In this document: positions 2,576 to 17,508 of the stretch, one piece after another | How the letters are laid out: each line of letters opens with the position of its first letter | How positions within the stretch are numbered: position 1 is the first letter of the stretch | DNA from: Pseudanabaena sp. M085S1SP2A07QC | Lineage (GTDB): Bacteria; Cyanobacteriota; Cyanobacteriia; Pseudanabaenales; Pseudanabaenaceae | Direction: 5' to 3' | Assembly (NCBI GenBank): GCA_020404895.1 | Contig: JADBWK010000004.1 | Span: forward strand, 109,506 to 173,505 | Length of the DNA stretch: 64,000 nucleotides | Position numbers and translations under genes: made by a program | The notes under the pieces: model-generated | Told to the model about the DNA's origin: nothing | Databases searched by the model: none | The model's input: the letters and a program-made list of their open reading frames with translations, nothing else

Positions 2576-4021
2576 ATGACTGACATGACTGCAACGGTTC
2601 AAGCACTTGTCAACCAACCATACAAATACGGATTTGTTACGTCTATTGAGTCGGACACGATTCCTCGTGGTCTGAGCGAAGATGTCGTCCGCATGATTTC
2701 GGCTAAAAAAAATGAGCCAGAATACATGTTGGAATTTCGGCTCAAGGCTTATCGTCAATGGTTAAAGATGCAAGAACCAACATGGGCGCATGTCGAATAT
2801 CCTGCGATCGATTACCAAAATATCGTTTATTATTCTGCACCCAAGCAATCGAAAAAGAAAGCAAGTCTTGATGAAGTTGATCCTGAATTACTAGATACTT
2901 TTGAGAAATTAGGGATTTCCATTAACGAGCAAAAGCGTCTGACCAATGTTGCCGTTGATGTCATTTTTGATAGCGTTTCGATCGCTACAACTTTTAAGAA
3001 AGATCTAGCCAAAGTTGGTGTAATCTTCTGCTCGATCACCGAAGCGATGCATGAATATCCTGAACTGATCAAAAAATATCTAGGTAGCGTTGTCCCGATC
3101 GCAGACAACTACTATTCAGCACTAAATGCTGCCGTATTTACCGATGGCTCCTTTGTATACATTCCCAAAGGCGTAAAGTGCCCGATGGATCTGTCTACCT
3201 ATTTCCGCATTAATAATGGCGATTCTGGACAGTTCGAGCGTACTTTGATTGTTGCTGAAGAAGGAGCCTATGTCAGCTATCTTGAAGGCTGTACAGCACC
3301 AATGTTTGATACCAATCAACTTCATGCAGCCGTAGTTGAATTAGTCGCCCTAGATGATGCCGAAATCAAATATTCCACAGTACAGAACTGGTTTGCTGGC
3401 GATAAAGATGGCAAAGGCGGTATCTATAACTTTGTGACTAAGCGTGGTTTGTGCCAAGGCAAAAACTCAAAGATCTCTTGGACTCAAGTAGAAACAGGTT
3501 CCGCAATTACTTGGAAGTATCCTAGTTGTGTATTGGTTGGTGAAAACTCCGTTGGCGAGTTTTACTCTGTTGCTCTAACAAATAATAAGCAACAGGCTGA
3601 TACTGGCTCAAAAATGGTGCATATCGGCAAAAATACCCGCAGCAAAATCGTTTCTAAAGGCATTTCCGCAGGTGGCTCCCAAAATAGCTATCGCGGCTTG
3701 GTGAAGATCTCACCCAAAGCTGAAGGCGCAAGAAATTATTCTCAATGCGACTCAATGCTGATTGGTGATTGCTCGCAGGCAAATACTTTCCCTTATATCC
3801 AAGTCCAAAACAATACCGCTAGAGTTGAGCATGAAGCCTCAACTTCTAAAATCGGCGAAGAGCAATTGTTCTATTTTCAACAACGCGGTATCGCAGTTGA
3901 AGATGCTGTCTCAATGATCATTAGTGGCTTCTGCAAAGAAGTATTTAATGCATTGCCGATGGAGTTTGCTGTTGAAGCTGATAAGCTCTTGGCTTTGAAG
4001 CTAGAGAATAGTGTTGGCTAG
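2576..4021 (+). CDS. sufB: Fe-S cluster assembly protein SufB
   Basis: 481 aa, full-length SufB-like sequence ([37 protein letters not shown]). RBS aggag lies 5' of the ATG. Confidence 0.97.
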
Positions 4022-11527: not shown

Positions 11528-12454
11528 TTATTTCTTTGGAGCGTCAGGTAATGGCATAATCGGTGCTCCATTTTGTAATTGGAGAATACCTGCAACAACA
11601 ATCTGATCTTTGGCATTTAAACCTTCTAACACCTCTTGTTTATTGCCAGTAATTTTTCCAAGCTTAACTGGTTTTTGATTAGCAATTAGAGATTTTCCAC
11701 CTGTAGGACTAGGCTCTGCAACAAAGATAAAATCTTGCCCTCCAAGACGGGAAATTGCCGAAGTTGGCACTAGTACACCAGCACGAGAAGCCCATATCAA
11801 TCTTGCTCTCACAAACTGATTAGCTTTGAGTTGATTAGTTCCATTATTAAAATTAGCTTTTACCAAAACCGATTGGCTTTGAGGATTAATATTCGGGGAA
11901 ATAAAAGCGACATTTCCTTTAACAAGAGGCTTATCTTGAGCGTCTAACAACTCTACAGGCATTCCCATTTTTAAGCGAGGTGCATTCTCAACTGGAACCG
12001 AAATCTGAACTTCTAATACTTGATTTTGAGTTACAGTCGTTAGCTGCGTTGTGCTATTGACATTGTCACCGACTTTAATGGGAATATCACCAACAATACC
12101 CGCAAAAGGAGCTGCTACCGTATAGAAATCTAGCTGTACTTCTTCCTGCACAGCACCAGCACGAGTTTCTTCAATCCTTGTGGCTGCACTATTAATACTT
12201 GCTTGTTGAGCATTCATCTGAGCATCGATCTGACCAAGTTCAGCTCTTGCATTTCTCAGATTATTCGCAACTTCGTCAAGCTTTTGTTTTGTTGTCGCAC
12301 CAGCACCAAATCCGTTACCTTTAGGAGCATTAGCAGAGCAAGAAACTAACAACGCACCGATTACAGCTACTAAGCCCTTGCTCAATGATTTATCTAATAG
12401 GTTGTTCGACAATAGCTGTCTTCGGAATTTATGTTTAATCATGAATATTGGCAA
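11528..12454 (-). CDS. Efflux transporter periplasmic adaptor (HlyD/MFP family), with no cognate pump gene adjacent
   Basis: Coiled-coil followed by the barrel-sandwich motif APFAGIVGDIPIKVGDNV and ARAGVLVPTSAI. The track start is TTG, and ATG at 12442 (MIKHKF) is the more likely start. Confidence 0.8.
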   Translation of the reverse strand: MPIFMIKHKFRRQLLSNNLLDKSLSKGLVAVIGALLVSCSANAPKGNGFGAGATTKQKLDEVANNLRNARAELGQIDAQMNAQQASINSAATRIEETRAGAVQEEVQLDFYTVAAPFAGIVGDIPIKVGDNVNSTTQLTTVTQNQVLEVQISVPVENAPRLKMGMPVELLDAQDKPLVKGNVAFISPNINPQSQSVLVKANFNNGTNQLKANQFVRARLIWASRAGVLVPTSAISRLGGQDFIFVAEPSPTGGKSLIANQKPVKLGKITGNKQEVLEGLNAKDQIVVAGILQLQNGAPIMPLPDAPKK

Positions 12455-12578: not shown

Positions 12579-13565
12579 TTAAATACCCGCATGTCCCATT
12601 GCGATACCTGCAACTAGCATCCCAATCACAAGGAATGGCTGAGCGCTGGCTTGATATTTCACATCATTTTTGAGTGGGTCACGCAGGAAGTACATGTCTT
12701 GAAATGTAATCTGCGGAATTACTAACAGCACAATTAAGCTTGCTAATAGTTGTTCGCCAACAGTAACCAAATAAATGGCGATGCCAATTTGGAAGACATC
12801 GATCGCAGTTGCCGAAATCAATGCCGCATTCTGCACGCCAAACATCACTGGCAAAGACTTCAATCCTAATTCGCGATCGCCTTCAACGCTTTTGAAGTCA
12901 TTGACGACAGCGATACCTAAACCAGCAAGGCTATAGAACAGGGTGACGGCTACTACTGTCCAGTTGAGGGTTCCATAAAGCGCATGACCTGCCCACCAAG
13001 GCAAAGCGATATAGCTTGCTCCGAGAGCATAGTTGCCGAGCCAACCATTTTGCTTGAGCTTCAAAGGTGGCGCAGAGTAGATATAGGCAACCAATGAACC
13101 ACCAACCGCTAATTTTGTCATGATAAAGTCTGCATGACCTGCGGTGACATCGAGGATTGCCGCTACCGCAATGCCCGCCAGCCACAAAATCCAAATCTGA
13201 GCAATGACTTGCTTGAGGGAAATTGCTCCCGATGGAATCGGACGATATGGCTCGTTAATTGCGTCAATTTCGCGATCGTAGTAATCGTTAATCGTCTGGG
13301 TATAGCCTGTCAGTAGGGGCCCTGACATGAGCATACAAAGTAGCGATCGAAATACGTTTTCAATCGACCATGTAAAATCGCCAGAGGAGGCTGCACCACA
13401 GAGTACGCCCCACATCAGGGGTATCCATGTAATCGGTTTCATCAGTTGCAGGCGGATCTTCCAGATTGAAGCGCCTTGTACGTCCGCACCTTTCATTCCG
13501 AGCATTTGGCGGGTACGGGCTTCGCGAGACTCGCTCGCTGGTACGTCAGGGGTTGGAGACGACAT
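12579..13565 (-). CDS. chlG: Chlorophyll a synthase ChlG (UbiA prenyltransferase family)
   Basis: Near-colinear with known ChlG: LGMKGA..IWKIRLQLMKPITWIPL, NDYYDREIDAINEPYRPIPSGAIS, VNDFKSVEGDR, DVKYQASAQPF. Confidence 0.97.
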   Translation of the reverse strand: MSSPTPDVPASESREARTRQMLGMKGADVQGASIWKIRLQLMKPITWIPLMWGVLCGAASSGDFTWSIENVFRSLLCMLMSGPLLTGYTQTINDYYDREIDAINEPYRPIPSGAISLKQVIAQIWILWLAGIAVAAILDVTAGHADFIMTKLAVGGSLVAYIYSAPPLKLKQNGWLGNYALGASYIALPWWAGHALYGTLNWTVVAVTLFYSLAGLGIAVVNDFKSVEGDRELGLKSLPVMFGVQNAALISATAIDVFQIGIAIYLVTVGEQLLASLIVLLVIPQITFQDMYFLRDPLKNDVKYQASAQPFLVIGMLVAGIAMGHAGI

Positions 13566-13706: not shown

Positions 13707-13973
13707 GTGCGTATGACTTACTCTGAGTTACGCGAAAAAGTTGAACAGCAAATATCTCAATTGCCGCTAGAGCGTCTTTTTTTGGTTAGCAGTTTTATTG
13801 ATTCGATTGAGTCTAAAGATGATGCGAGTAATAAACAGTTTCGCCGTATTCCATCTCTGAAGCGCAATAAAAAAGCTAGCGATTTGTTACGTCATGCGGG
13901 AACTTGGCAAGGTAACGATCTAGCTGAATGTCTTGATTTTGTTCAAGATAGTCGTTCTAGGACGCACTTTTAG
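13707..13973 (+). CDS. Small antitoxin-like protein with no cognate toxin gene downstream
   Basis: The likely start is ATG 13713, after RBS aaggagg. The N-terminal helix (SELREKVEQQISQLPLERL) resembles those common in cyanobacterial type II antitoxins. This is a family-level guess only. Confidence 0.4.
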   Translation: MRMTYSELREKVEQQISQLPLERLFLVSSFIDSIESKDDASNKQFRRIPSLKRNKKASDLLRHAGTWQGNDLAECLDFVQDSRSRTHF

Positions 13974-14103
13974 TCTTAATATTTCTTATTTGCAATCAAT
14001 CCGTAATTTAATCGGTAGAACTAAATAAAAAAGTTATTGCTGAATAAAAATATTTTTACAAATGTAAATAAGTAGCCTTTTAAACTAGAGATTGGATTAA
14101 AAA

Positions 14104-15780
14104 ATGTCAATTGAAATAATTAAACAGCAAATAAATAAGTTTGTTAGCCACGACACGCCAGAAGTGATAGCTATTAAGGGTGAATGGGGAGTTGGTAAAA
14201 CCTATGCTTGGAATACATTTTTATCAGATGCTCAAAAAGAAAATCGAGTTGCATTAAAAAAATACTCTTATGTTTCAATGTTTGGAATTAATTCCTTAGA
14301 TGCTTTCAAATATGCAATATTTGAAAATGTTATAGATCGTGAATTGATAGGAGTTGGAGCTAATGTAGAAACATTTAAACAAAACACTTCTAGTTTGCTT
14401 GAAAAGCTGACTAGAAAATCTTTCATGATATTTAAAGATGTTTCAGTTTTAAAAGGGATTACTCCTGCTATTGAGTCTCTTTCATTTCTCTCTCTCAGCC
14501 AAACATTAATATGTATAGATGATCTTGAAAGAAAAGGAAGAGCGCTTGACATTAAAGATATCCTTGGGCTTATCTCTCTCTTAAAAGAGCAAAGAAAATG
14601 TAAGTTTATTATACTGCTCAATGATGGAGAAGATGGACTAGAAGAATATTCAAAATACAAAGAAAAGGTGATTGATCTTGAGATGCTCTTTGCCCCGACA
14701 GCAGATGAATGTGCTGAAATCGCATTTCAGAAAAACAGTTATGAGTCTAATAAATTAAAAGAGTTGACTCCAAAATTAGGAATTAAGAATATACGTGTAC
14801 TAAAAAAAATCGAGAAATTGGTTGATCTATCTATACCTTTAGCTAGTTCATATGAGCAAGAACTCAGAGACCAATTAATTCATTCATTGGTGTTATTTAC
14901 CTACTGTCATTACTGTTCTAAGAATGTTCAAGATATACCGCCTCTAGAATTTACTACACATTTAGGTTACAACTTTTTAGGAATTGGTGCAGCTCAAGAC
15001 GATAACGAAGAAAAGAAGAAATGGCGCTCATTATTACATAGTTATAACTATAACCATACCGATAGTTTTGATTTGGTATTAGCAGAATCTATCCGTGCAG
15101 GCTATTTCATTGAGGAAGATTTTGAAAGGGAAGCAGAGAAAAAGAATGGAGAAATAATTGCATCAAGATCATTAGGTTCGTTTAAAGAATCTTGGAATTT
15201 ATATCATGAAACATTTGACAATAATACAGATGAGGTAATTAGTGGCATTTACGAAAGCTTTAAAAAGAACACTAAATATATTTCAACAAATGATTTGAAT
15301 GGCACTGTTACATTATTTAGACAGCTTGGTGAAGACAAGAAAGCTTCAGAGATCATCGATATTTATATACGAGAAAGAATGGATGAAAAAAAATCATTTG
15401 ATCTTGCAAGCAATAACTTTTTTGGAGATGTTATCGATCCTGAAATAGTACATAGATTTAATGATACATATAAAGAATTATCCACCAAAGAAAGTGCCAA
15501 ACAAGTGCTTGAACGTATTGCTGGTAAGAATGGATGGAATGAGAATGACATAGTTGTATTAGCCAGTACAACCACTGATGAATACTATAATTTGTTCAAA
15601 TCTTTACAAGGAGAACATATTTATCCCTATATAAATACTTGTTTGCAATTTAATAGATTTGTTGCTCCTTCTGATCAGCATAAAGAAATTGCGGAAAAAG
15701 CTATAGAAGCATTGAAGAAAATCGCTGCCGAATCTGAAATTAATAGATTACGAGTTCGCAAGTTTGGTATTGATGTTTAG
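14104..15780 (+). CDS. KAP-family P-loop NTPase
   Basis: Walker A KGEWGVGKTY (GxWGxGKT) and Walker B LICIDDLERKG, followed by a long helical C-terminal region. G+C is visibly lower than in the flanking genes. Confidence 0.8.
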   Translation: MSIEIIKQQINKFVSHDTPEVIAIKGEWGVGKTYAWNTFLSDAQKENRVALKKYSYVSMFGINSLDAFKYAIFENVIDRELIGVGANVETFKQNTSSLLEKLTRKSFMIFKDVSVLKGITPAIESLSFLSLSQTLICIDDLERKGRALDIKDILGLISLLKEQRKCKFIILLNDGEDGLEEYSKYKEKVIDLEMLFAPTADECAEIAFQKNSYESNKLKELTPKLGIKNIRVLKKIEKLVDLSIPLASSYEQELRDQLIHSLVLFTYCHYCSKNVQDIPPLEFTTHLGYNFLGIGAAQDDNEEKKKWRSLLHSYNYNHTDSFDLVLAESIRAGYFIEEDFEREAEKKNGEIIASRSLGSFKESWNLYHETFDNNTDEVISGIYESFKKNTKYISTNDLNGTVTLFRQLGEDKKASEIIDIYIRERMDEKKSFDLASNNFFGDVIDPEIVHRFNDTYKELSTKESAKQVLERIAGKNGWNENDIVVLASTTTDEYYNLFKSLQGEHIYPYINTCLQFNRFVAPSDQHKEIAEKAIEALKKIAAESEINRLRVRKFGIDV

Positions 15781-15800
15781 GATTTTTATACATAGGAATA

Positions 15801-15872
15801 ATGAAAGAGTCAAGATTTGATCCACAAAGATTACGAGATAGACTCATTTCCTCAAATCTTCCTTTGACTTAA
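15801..15872 (+). pseudogene. 23-codon remnant of a DUF433-type gene 3' end (MKESRFDPQRLRDRLISSNLPLT*)
   Basis: About 75% nt identity with 16652-16723, the 3' end of the intact DUF433 gene, and with the same stop position. Confidence 0.75.
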
Positions 15873-15889
15873 GCACGCAGGAGTTTTAT

Positions 15890-16087
15890 ATGAGCATTCA
15901 AGAACTTGAAACCGCAATCAAAAAGCTGTCTACAAAAGAGTTAGCCAGCTTAACAACATGGCTAATAGATTACCATGAGCAAATATGGGATCAGCAAATA
16001 GAAGACGATCTTGATTCTGGAAAGCTTAATCAATTATTAGATGAGATTGATAGTGAGTACGAAGCAGGGCTAGCCAAAAGTTTATGA
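15890..16087 (+). CDS. Type II antitoxin-like protein
   Basis: 65 aa, acidic and helical. It overlaps the downstream toxin gene by 4 nt (ATGA). Confidence 0.6.
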   Translation: MSIQELETAIKKLSTKELASLTTWLIDYHEQIWDQQIEDDLDSGKLNQLLDEIDSEYEAGLAKSL

Positions 16088-16350
16088 ATCACCTAACTCT
16101 ACCTAGATTTTGGCAAGCATATAACAAACTTCCCAAAGAAATCCAAACTCTAGCCGACAAAAACTATGAACTGTTAAAAAACAATCCTTTGCATCCATCA
16201 CTTCACTTTAAGAAAGTTGGCAAGCGTAAACAATTATGGTCTGTGAGGATCACCGATAATTATCGAGCGCTTGGACTCGAAAAGCCAGAAGGTATTGTCT
16301 GGTTTTGGATTGGTACACATAGCGATTATGATGCAATCCTAGATCAGTAG
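16084..16350 (+). CDS. RelE/ParE-superfamily toxin-like protein
   Basis: 88 aa. The pattern LHPSLHFKKVGKRKQLWSVRITDNYRALG..IVWFWIGTHSDYD is typical of RelE/ParE-fold toxins. Confidence 0.65.
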   Translation: MNHLTLPRFWQAYNKLPKEIQTLADKNYELLKNNPLHPSLHFKKVGKRKQLWSVRITDNYRALGLEKPEGIVWFWIGTHSDYDAILDQ

Positions 16351-16390: not shown

Positions 16391-16723
16391 ATGACATTAG
16401 CCATTACTGCCGAACCAGTTCCACTCAAAACCGACATCAATGGTGTAGTGCGCGTTGGTAAAACCCGCGTCACCCTTGATACAGTTATCAAAACCTTTCA
16501 GAATGGTGCAACGGCTGAAGAAATTGTTTATCGTTATCCATCCCTAAAACTAGCCGATGTCTACACCACAATTAGCTTTTACCTCAATCATCAGCAAGAA
16601 GTCGAAACATATTTACAGCAAAGGCAAAATCAAGCGCAAATAATCCGCACAATGAATCAATCAAGGTTTGATCCTCAAAGATTACGAAACAGACTCATTC
16701 TCGCAAGCCTTCATTTGATCTAA
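16391..16723 (+). CDS. DUF433 domain protein (antitoxin-like HTH)
   Basis: GVVRVGKTRVTLDTVIKTFQNGATAEEIVYRYPSLKLADVYTTISFYLNH matches the DUF433 pattern. Confidence 0.75.
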   Translation: MTLAITAEPVPLKTDINGVVRVGKTRVTLDTVIKTFQNGATAEEIVYRYPSLKLADVYTTISFYLNHQQEVETYLQQRQNQAQIIRTMNQSRFDPQRLRNRLILASLHLI

Positions 16724-16739
16724 TCAATCAGGAGTTTAT

Positions 16740-17324
16740 ATGTCCGCGATCGCACTCTCAACTCCAACAACAACTAAAAAAATCTGGACAGATGCCGAAC
16801 TAATGGCATTAACAGATGGGAAATGCTATGAGCTTGTTAATGGAGAGCTAATTGACATGGGAAATTCGGGAGCCTTATATGGATACACTTGTAGTCTTCT
16901 CGTTATGGCTCTGATGAACTACATTTTACCTAGAGGACTGGGGATTATTCTCGACTCTAGCGTAGCCTTCACGATGAAAAATGGTAACAAGCGATCGCCT
17001 GATATTTCCTTTGTATCTAGAGACAAGTTACAAGGATTGGCTGAATTGCCTGATGGCTTTTTAGATGGCGCACCTGATTTAGCGATCGAGGTTCTTTCAC
17101 CTAACAACACGATCGCTGAAATCGATCAAAAAATTGTGGAATACTTTGAGAATGGCTCACGCTTAGTTTGGGTGATCAATCTGAAATTGCATTATGTTTT
17201 AGTCTATCGCTCAGCCCTAGAACCCGATCGCTTACTCAAGCAGTCAGATTCTTTAGATGGGGAAGATGTGATTGCTGGTTTTACAATGCCATTGTTTGAA
17301 TTATTTCAAAGGATATCATTCTAA
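16740..17324 (+). CDS. Uma2-family (DUF820) PD-(D/E)xK endonuclease
   Basis: 194 aa. Motifs YELVNGELI, SPDISFV and PDLAIEVLSPNN are typical of Uma2 proteins. Confidence 0.8.
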   Translation: MSAIALSTPTTTKKIWTDAELMALTDGKCYELVNGELIDMGNSGALYGYTCSLLVMALMNYILPRGLGIILDSSVAFTMKNGNKRSPDISFVSRDKLQGLAELPDGFLDGAPDLAIEVLSPNNTIAEIDQKIVEYFENGSRLVWVINLKLHYVLVYRSALEPDRLLKQSDSLDGEDVIAGFTMPLFELFQRISF

Positions 17325-17451: not shown

Positions 17452-17508
17452 CAAATGTAAAAAAGCAAGCAAAATCACGATGTGATTTTGCTTGCTTTTT
17501 TACATTTG
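17452..17508. terminator. 57-nt perfect palindrome (27-bp stem, 3-nt loop) between convergent genes
   Basis: caaatgtaaaaaagcaagcaaaatcac-gat-gtgattttgcttgcttttttacatttg. Confidence 0.7.

Follow-up and report, generated by a model that had tools for sequence, protein, structure and literature searches.

What does a gene for a P-loop nucleoside triphosphatase (NTPase) of the KAP type do in a cyanobacterium, and how did it come to lie beside chlG, the gene for chlorophyll synthase? The question is raised by a 64,000-nucleotide (nt) stretch of contig JADBWK010000004.1 of Pseudanabaena sp. M085S1SP2A07QC (hereafter the window; coordinates given without a locus name refer to it), in which such a gene, coding for a protein of 558 amino acids (aa), is the neighbour of chlG. 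The mobility of this gene and its location in a hotspot are well supported by the genome comparisons presented below. As for its function, we propose, with a probability that we put at roughly 60%, that it specifies a self-contained, soluble, single-protein anti-phage defence of the KAP type, a role suggested by its homology to the validated defence protein Reve and by its genomic context.

The NTPase gene is the sole long open reading frame (ORF) of the interval in question (14104-15780, forward strand), and it can be described by the following features:

14104..15780, forward strand: KAP-type NTPase gene, 558 aa, soluble; PDC-S49 / phrog_4740 / Reve superfamily
14179..14202, forward strand: Walker A motif GEWGVGKT, residues 26-33, read from the sequence
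14506..14532, forward strand: Walker B motif LICIDDLER, residues 135-143, read from the sequence
14926..15777, forward strand: predicted C-terminal all-alpha domain, residues 275-558
13974..14103, forward strand: AT-rich upstream spacer, 130 nt, 21.5% G+C

The ORF and its two motifs had already been picked out in an earlier reading made from the letters and translations only (the sequence-only reading), and both motifs conform to the KAP family patterns, that is, GxxGxGKT/S for Walker A and hhhhDDL(D/E)R for Walker B; in an alignment of 40 homologues the residues G26, W28, G29, G31, K32, T33, D139, D140, E142, and R143 are invariant. The attribution to the KAP-type P-loop NTPases also stood. 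Pfam KAP_NTPase (PF07693) matches residues 11-174 of the protein (profile positions 9-192 of 293) at 21.9 bits, just over the cut-off of 20 (E 1.2e-4), a marginal and partial match, and the PADLOC scan proposed in that reading returned the candidate PDC-S49 (E 1.9e-21, 74.5 bits), residues 22-408 being aligned with positions 27-415 of its 624-position profile; phrog_4740 is matched end to end (E 1.6e-88). The scan against NCBIfam gave sub-threshold noise only (beta-phosphoglucomutase, 27 bits against a cut-off of 189), and no transmembrane segment was detected in the 558-aa protein, the maximal Kyte-Doolittle hydropathy over 19 residues being 1.26 and no value reaching 1.6.

The full-length AlphaFold2 model (predicted local distance difference test score, pLDDT, 80.7) comprises a P-loop core with five strands, a helical lid (residues 200-271), and an all-helical C-terminal half, in agreement with the long helical tail previously noticed. 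A helical insert, modelled with low confidence, spans residues 78-120, just where the membrane helices of classical KAP proteins are located; indeed, transmembrane helices inserted in the NTPase domain are typical of many, though not all, KAP members. When the full-length model was compared with the PDB by Foldseek, the top matches were Apaf-1, human ORC, and archaeal Cdc6/ORC2 (E 2e-4 to 5e-3, probability about 1.0), with TnsC, SAMD9, and NLRP2 also retrieved, yet the template modelling (TM) scores were just 0.2-0.4; since these scores are low, what the matches to the predicted structure show is a generic AAA+/STAND-like core only. The comparison with viral structures likewise retrieved generic AAA+ proteins only. 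Residues 275-558, modelled alone (284 residues), gave a pLDDT of 88.1 and consist exclusively of helices. For this domain the best Foldseek match in the PDB had an E of 0.022 and a TM-score of about 0.2 (designed helical repeats, 14-3-3), and neither Pfam, in a scan of 55 family members, nor PDB sequence profiles gave a match, so that the effector or sensor domain looked for in this region did not emerge by any of the three routes. The domain is conserved across the family, with G333, W364, and L537 invariant in 55 sequences, and on the predicted structure it is a novel all-helical domain of no recognisable family or fold.

Base composition was the trait that had led to the description of the locus as a low-GC, horizontally acquired island. 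The G+C content is 32.0% in the NTPase ORF and 21.5% in the spacer at 13974-14103, against 48.7% in chlG and 41.7% in the 4.81-Mb genome; thus, the claim that gene and spacer are AT-richer than their neighbours is correct. In the windowed analysis the ORF falls at the 0.8th percentile of all 1677-nt genome windows (mean 41.8%, standard deviation 3.1), which makes it a compositional outlier, and among 1620 long ORFs it lies at the 1.7th percentile for GC (32.0%) and at the 2.3rd for G+C at third codon positions (GC3, 23.1%). These percentiles are the useful statistics, the codon-usage log-score being uninformative for this gene: it is high because the preferred synonymous codons of the genome end in A or T. 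However, 61 of 64 family loci show an NTPase gene with a higher A+T content than its flanks, the mean difference being 10 points (Wilcoxon p = 5e-12), and therefore low GC is a trait of the whole family and not a special mark of an insertion beside chlG. Horizontal acquisition thus stands on the outlier composition, on a sporadic distribution, and on a nested phylogenetic position, whereas the use of low GC as the signature of this particular insertion has to be abandoned.

Regarding distribution, the KAP gene is present in 4 of the 48 species-representative Pseudanabaena genomes, namely the one analysed here, P. mucicola FACHB-723 (90% aa identity), Pseudanabaena sp. UWO311 (89%), and P. biceps O153 (94-95%), while metagenome contigs reveal a fifth carrier lineage (95%). 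It is not vertically conserved next to chlG: it is absent from the genomes having the closest chlG (99% aa identity; congeners G029, G013, G061, G034, G016, and G063) and is less diverged than chlG between carriers, although, despite this non-vertical distribution, it adjoins chlG in every copy in the genus whose contig extends far enough. In P. biceps a 1.1-kb element (L094:7263-8364) interrupts the gene after codon 421; it encodes two overlapping transposase-like ORFs (173 and 236 aa) and by our own reading is an insertion sequence (IS) of the IS630-like type. The rest of that locus reproduces the whole layout of the window.

The comparison of the cassette with its surroundings is the most informative about its history. 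Nucleotide identity with P. mucicola is 72% in the SLT gene, 76% in the HlyD gene, 84% in the chlG region, and 90.7% in the cassette (13815-15892), and identity with P. biceps, about 75% in HlyD, reaches 91-99% in the cassette. In the same way, the synonymous divergence (dS) from P. mucicola is 0.21 for the NTPase gene, against 0.57 for chlG and 0.37 for the Uma2 gene. The cassette is more similar, and has a lower dS, than the core flanks and therefore spread between Pseudanabaena lineages that had already diverged. What was acquired horizontally is a cassette of a single gene, about 1.8 kb long (approximately 13993-15799) and devoid of an integrase. As no recombinase gene is present, the most economical explanation is that homologous recombination in the conserved flanks moved the cassette from one lineage to another. 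A quick maximum-likelihood tree (supports from the Shimodaira-Hasegawa-like approximate likelihood ratio test, SH-aLRT) places the Pseudanabaena sequences in a clade (support 100) nested in a mainly proteobacterial one (support 98), among mostly gammaproteobacterial sequences, the taxonomy being scrambled throughout the tree.

A gene that has recently travelled does not necessarily work in its new host, and it might be supposed that the NTPase gene is a functionless passenger, recently transferred and drifting towards loss. Its sporadic presence in the genus (4/48 genomes), the IS-split copy of P. biceps, a composition far from that of the host, and a ratio of nonsynonymous to synonymous divergence (dN/dS) five times that of chlG (0.24 against 0.05, both versus P. 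mucicola) are all in agreement with this idea. Nevertheless, four diverged lineages have kept the frame of 558 codons intact, a dN/dS of 0.24 is well under 1, the protein is conserved over its full length and is uniform in length over at least 1182 clusters, and patchy presence with occasional inactivation is typical of defence genes. The dN/dS values indicate that the NTPase gene is under purifying selection, weaker than that acting on chlG, and we consider the passenger explanation unlikely, even though it is the one that survives best among the alternatives to a defence role.

The family to which the protein belongs is very large. A word-indexed search retrieved full-length relatives of 558-560 aa with 55-60% identity in many Gammaproteobacteria (Shewanella, Vibrio, Pseudomonas, Pseudoalteromonas, and Aeromonas) as well as in the non-gammaproteobacterial Nitrotoga. 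In an exhaustive search, 3850 clusters (at 50% identity) were found at E <=1e-3 and 1182 at E <=1e-30. Among the best 150 clusters nearly all are collinear with the query end to end (545-610 aa), the rest being shorter fragments, and no variant with an added effector domain occurs among them. The superfamily, whose members are uniformly some 560 aa in length, ranges over cyanobacteria, proteobacteria, bacteria of the candidate phyla radiation (CPR), phages, plasmids, and integron cassettes. When 979 neighbouring ORFs from 80 homologue loci were clustered, no family turned up as a partner in more than 4 of the loci, which bears out the initial impression of a stand-alone gene.

One neighbour does recur, namely a tyrosine recombinase (Phage_int_SAM_4 plus Phage_integrase) that three marine Gammaproteobacteria encode upstream of cassette-like arrays, in divergent orientation. 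In these integron-like loci of Cycloclasticus, Oceanospirillum maris, and Marinobacter daqiaonensis (L076:3997-7750, L080:4320-7683, L097:3440-7686) the homologue lies one or two genes downstream of the divergent IntI-like recombinase, amid short co-oriented ORFs, and in L076 the stop codon of the homologue is followed by an imperfect attC-like hairpin (GCATAAC...GTTATGC, z = -3.2). Arrays and hairpin, as read from their sequences, point to the family travelling also as an integron cassette. Other homologues have varied surroundings. One belongs to an integrative element of Pseudomonas, another is flanked by housekeeping genes in a Vibrio, and one with 64% identity directly follows a Phd-YoeB pair in three contigs. 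Temperate phages of Burkholderia carry the gene in an accessory region, at a distance of two genes from a RelE-like pair. Plasmids harbour it as well, one in Nostoc and others, about 110 kb in size, in E. coli and Klebsiella; the E. coli IncFIB plasmid that we inspected (111 kb) bears phage tail-fibre genes.

This wide association with mobile elements might also be read in another way, according to which the NTPase serves the elements themselves as an ORC/Cdc6-like ATPase for replication, partition, or exclusion, the chromosomal copy being a stranded remnant. The best structural matches (ORC/Cdc6, TnsC, and clamp-loader-type AAA+ ATPases) and the homologues on plasmids and temperate phages, once beside ParA-like and DnaB-like genes, fit such a scenario. 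On the other hand, the corresponding TM-scores are low (0.2-0.3) and reflect the generic AAA+ core only; the gene occurs alone in chromosomes without any element backbone; in phages it sits in accessory regions by toxin-antitoxin genes, outside the replication modules; and the relative Reve protects from phage when expressed alone. In our opinion this explanation is improbable, a little more so than that of a passenger.

The next question is what kind of site the cassette occupies. Its surroundings are organized as follows:

12579..13565, reverse strand: chlG, UbiA-family chlorophyll synthase (Pfam UbiA, E 3.8e-35); conserved left anchor
13707..13973, forward strand: orphan VapB-like antitoxin gene, 88 aa; PIN/VapC partner missing here
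15800..15886, forward strand: DUF433 3'-end remnant, spacer, and ribosome-binding site (RBS); 87-nt direct repeat; right cassette junction
15890..16350, forward strand: ParE-like toxin-antitoxin pair, 65-aa antitoxin-like protein and 88-aa toxin with overlapping stop and start; intact
16391..16723, forward strand: intact DUF433 gene, 110 aa (Pfam DUF433, E 3.6e-10); source type of the repeated tail
16740..17324, forward strand: Uma2-family gene, putatively restriction endonuclease-like (Pfam Uma2, E 1.4e-29); right anchor

Of the two anchors, chlG is single-copy in 39 of 41 genomes of the genus (91-99% aa identity), and the Uma2 gene, which also matches PADLOC PDC-S03 (E 8.8e-15), is 89-94% identical in G031, G063, and P. 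biceps. At the left boundary, the 88-aa gene has no Pfam match, and its orthologues in the congeners G063, G006, and G035 (82-89% identical) are followed, 10 nt downstream, by a 148-aa PIN gene (Pfam PIN, E 2.7e-16). Homology between the window and G063, which lacks the KAP gene, stops at 13992, 12 nt inside this PIN gene, and resumes at 16670, about 70 nt ahead of Uma2. The alignment sets the predicted left junction at approximately 13993; the antitoxin-like gene is thus an orphan, as had been supposed, and the KAP cassette on its arrival displaced the VapC partner. In the carriers G031 and L065 the 88-aa gene is itself degraded (57-58% identity, with a deletion), whereas the KAP gene is intact. 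The last alternative, a new two-gene module in which the 88-aa antitoxin-like protein would have the NTPase as its toxin-like or effector partner, could appeal to the adjacency and co-orientation of the two genes and to the frequent proximity of relatives to toxin-antitoxin genes (Phd-YoeB, the RelE-like pair of the Burkholderia phage, GNAT/DUF1778 on an E. coli plasmid), but it is highly improbable, given that congeners pair the 88-aa gene with a PIN gene, that two lineages with an intact KAP gene have only a degraded copy of it, that the neighbouring toxin-antitoxin families vary by locus with none recurring, and that a 130-nt AT-rich spacer separates the two genes.

At the right boundary, the 23 codons found at 15803-15874 (MKESRFDPQRLRDRLISSNLPLT) are what remains of a DUF433 gene, in agreement with the sequence-only reading: the direct repeat 15800-15886 is 79% identical to 16651-16737, where the intact DUF433 gene ends with its last 23 codons and is followed by the spacer and the RBS. 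In P. mucicola, P. biceps, and the metagenome contigs, too, this remnant lies after the KAP gene, and apart from this DUF433-tail repeat neither terminal inverted repeats nor target-site duplications were found at the cassette ends. Of the flanking genes that the insertion was said to have deleted, the VapC partner was indeed replaced, but the truncation of DUF433 is not necessarily due to the insertion, as the tail also occurs in the KAP-less G063. There (L046) it lies before Uma2, at 3829-3899 in window orientation, and therefore the truncation belongs to the cassette-swapping history of the hotspot and is not to be pinned on the arrival of the KAP gene. The DUF433 3' tail with its RBS recurs at boundaries, preceding both the ParE pair and Uma2 in the window and Uma2 again in G063, and this short module may serve as a recombination anchor for cargo exchange in the slot. 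The intact ParE-like pair and the intact DUF433 gene to the right of the remnant had been passed over. The 88-aa toxin of this pair matches Pfam ParE_like (E 8.2e-10), and the pair is missing from the KAP-bearing locus of P. mucicola and found in the KAP-less G013 and G009; it is a separate cargo of the same hotspot.

The comparison of the region upstream of chlG in 16 congeners, onto which the window proteins were mapped, revealed that chlG is constant and that the genes after it vary. In G063 the slot holds the 88-aa gene, the 148-aa PIN gene, a 267-aa endonuclease of the DpnII/MboI type, and Uma2; in G013 it holds an AAA_15/AAA_21 ATPase with a 213-aa partner, and by our reading of the sequences, not by a scan, probably also the ParE pair, DUF433, and a MazF-like pair; in G018 it holds a 663-aa GHKL (HATPase_c_3) protein and a DUF433 orthologue paired with a 115-aa gene that we judge to be possibly DUF5615-like. 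The alternative cargoes found at this site in congeners are defence or toxin-antitoxin genes, and the interpretation of the chlG-Uma2 slot as a hotspot with alternative cargoes, the KAP gene included, is well supported.

Some further details of the slot and its vicinity emerged. In G013 (L045, 2894-4848 in window orientation) the gene for the 438-aa AAA_15/AAA_21 ATPase overlaps that for the 213-aa protein, which has no Pfam match and carries Cys/His-rich HNH-like motifs; to our reading this arrangement looks Septu-like. In the metagenome contig GROS21-1 scaffold_919 (L065:7432-8479), from a population bearing the KAP gene, an insertion of about 1 kb with two reverse-strand ORFs (201 and 134 aa) interrupts the 65-aa antitoxin gene after the remnant, and farther downstream the contig has genes for a Ser/Thr kinase and a TPR protein that the window lacks. 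Downstream of chlG, the HlyD-family membrane-fusion gene (11528-12454, reverse strand) is called at just 308 aa, and its alignment with orthologues of 424-428 aa from P. mucicola and the metagenome contigs falls into two pieces (residues 1-51 and about 34-308), with a gap of roughly 300-450 nt between them in several congeners; a truncation of the gene in this genome, or a wrongly called start, may be the reason. Lastly, a perfect 27-nt inverted repeat with a 3-nt loop (17452-17508), located in the intergenic region between Uma2 and a lipoprotein gene, is probably a bidirectional terminator between convergent genes.

How might a protein of this kind stop a phage? If the KAP-type NTPase is indeed a defence protein, its N-terminal ORC/Cdc6/STAND-like module would act as an ATP-driven switch, the elements of which would be K32 of Walker A, D139, D140, and E142 of Walker B, and the helical lid with its invariant NIR motif (R231); the all-helical C-terminal domain would recognise a phage component, and ATP-dependent assembly or remodelling would then block the infection directly. 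A direct block is proposed because no nuclease, protease, Toll/interleukin-1 receptor (TIR), or pore domain is recognised in the 558-aa protein. More tentatively, and with considerable doubt, this scheme might be extended to the whole superfamily, which would represent a widespread immune NTPase devoid of a classical effector, where the C-terminal domain captures a phage protein or nucleic acid and the ORC-like motor stops infection alone, by ATP-driven sequestration, assembly, or disassembly. If this were true, the mechanism would be host-independent, and this could explain the identity of about 60% between proteins of a cyanobacterium and of marine Gammaproteobacteria.

Several observations weigh against a defence role. 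Reve is the sole validated relative compared, it is 27% identical to our protein, and the two align over the NTPase half only, the homology of the C-terminal domains being indirect, via phrog_4740; PDC-S49, for its part, is itself a computational candidate. No effector domain was recognised by Pfam, PDB sequence profiles, or Foldseek, and the mechanism is consequently conjectural. As regards expression, a consensus scan found no confident sigma-70-type promoter in the upstream spacer, promoter-like sites being fewer than in shuffled sequences and none falling in the spacer, and no confident terminator was predicted for the gene. Lastly, the gene is IS-inactivated in P. biceps and missing from most congeners, and it is therefore dispensable.

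The KAP gene adds a member to a kind that has already been catalogued and whose relatives are experimentally supported. If active, it would be a cyanobacterial representative of a family of single-gene defences that is very large and for the most part unstudied, and the host range of the Reve/PDC-S49 type would reach far past enterobacterial prophages and satellites. Moreover, the Pseudanabaena locus offers natural controls at one and the same site, with intact, IS-disrupted, and empty or otherwise filled alleles, which are suited to asking what the KAP gene costs and what protection it gives in bloom-forming cyanobacteria, and the chlG-Uma2 slot illustrates cassette exchange between species in the absence of an integrase.

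It remains to place the gene among known systems. The closest in kind is Reve (pFD425, 'UnknownSys7'), a single-gene KAP-domain defence from P4-satellite hotspots of E. coli that acts against Drexlerviridae, with reductions in plaquing of as much as five or six orders of magnitude (bioRxiv 10.64898/2026.02.27.708500). The sequence of Reve, taken from the supplementary file of that work, was compared directly with the window protein: BLASTP gave 27% identity over 260 aa (E 2e-9) and hhalign a probability of 96.5% over columns 10-263, which cover the NTPase and the lid. Reve also matches PDC-S49 (E 2.5e-11) and phrog_4740 (E 2.7e-17, residues 4-544). The two are alike in being single soluble proteins of about 560-590 aa, in the identical Walker A GEWGVGKT, in the IDDLER Walker B (IIDDLER in the aligned Reve), in the YxSxxGxNSLxxFK and NIR motifs, in having the human ORC motor module among the top Foldseek matches, and in the AT-richness of their genes (30% G+C for Reve and 32% for the window gene). 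They differ in that no direct alignment extends past residue 263, although both match phrog_4740 almost end to end, and in that their hosts belong to different phyla, Reve residing in a P4 satellite and the window gene in an integrase-free chromosomal slot. Protection by Reve was shown by plaque assay, whereas the window protein is linked to it by sequence comparison. PDC-S49 (a PADLOC-DB v2 candidate) and PHROG phrog_4740 are computational groupings; the match to the former misses the last 150 residues of the window protein, and a literature search for 'PDC-S49' returned no papers.

The likeness to the KAP proteins of Enterococcus faecalis is one of described architecture, in which a C-terminal region without a known domain, about 300 aa long, comes after a KAP-type NTPase. 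Four such NTPases, fused to C-terminal regions of unknown function, protect this bacterium (PLoS Biol 2026, PMC13552941); for its defence EF_KAP depends on both its C-terminal region and Walker B, and the protection, which extends to high multiplicity of infection, is not abortive (PMC13552941). EF_KAP has two predicted transmembrane helices, whereas the window protein has none. With the classical KAP proteins (PF07693; Kidins220/ARMS and PifA) and with Tmn the window protein shares a KAP-type Walker A, a DDLxR-type Walker B, and a helical insert between them, which in our case is devoid of transmembrane helices; PifA of plasmid F, a member of the KAP family, excludes phage T7 (PMC13552941), and in the PADLOC scan the window protein did not match the Tmn models. 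Finally, the chromosomal slot resembles the known integrase-free hotspots, which are flanked by core genes and exchanged by homologous recombination, in its conserved anchors (chlG on one side, the DUF433 tail with Uma2 on the other), in its alternative defence and toxin-antitoxin cargoes, in the lack of a recombinase gene, and in a cargo that is more similar between species than the flanks are; it differs from them in its small size (1-5 kb), in belonging to a cyanobacterial genus, and in the module of DUF433 tail and RBS that marks its boundaries.

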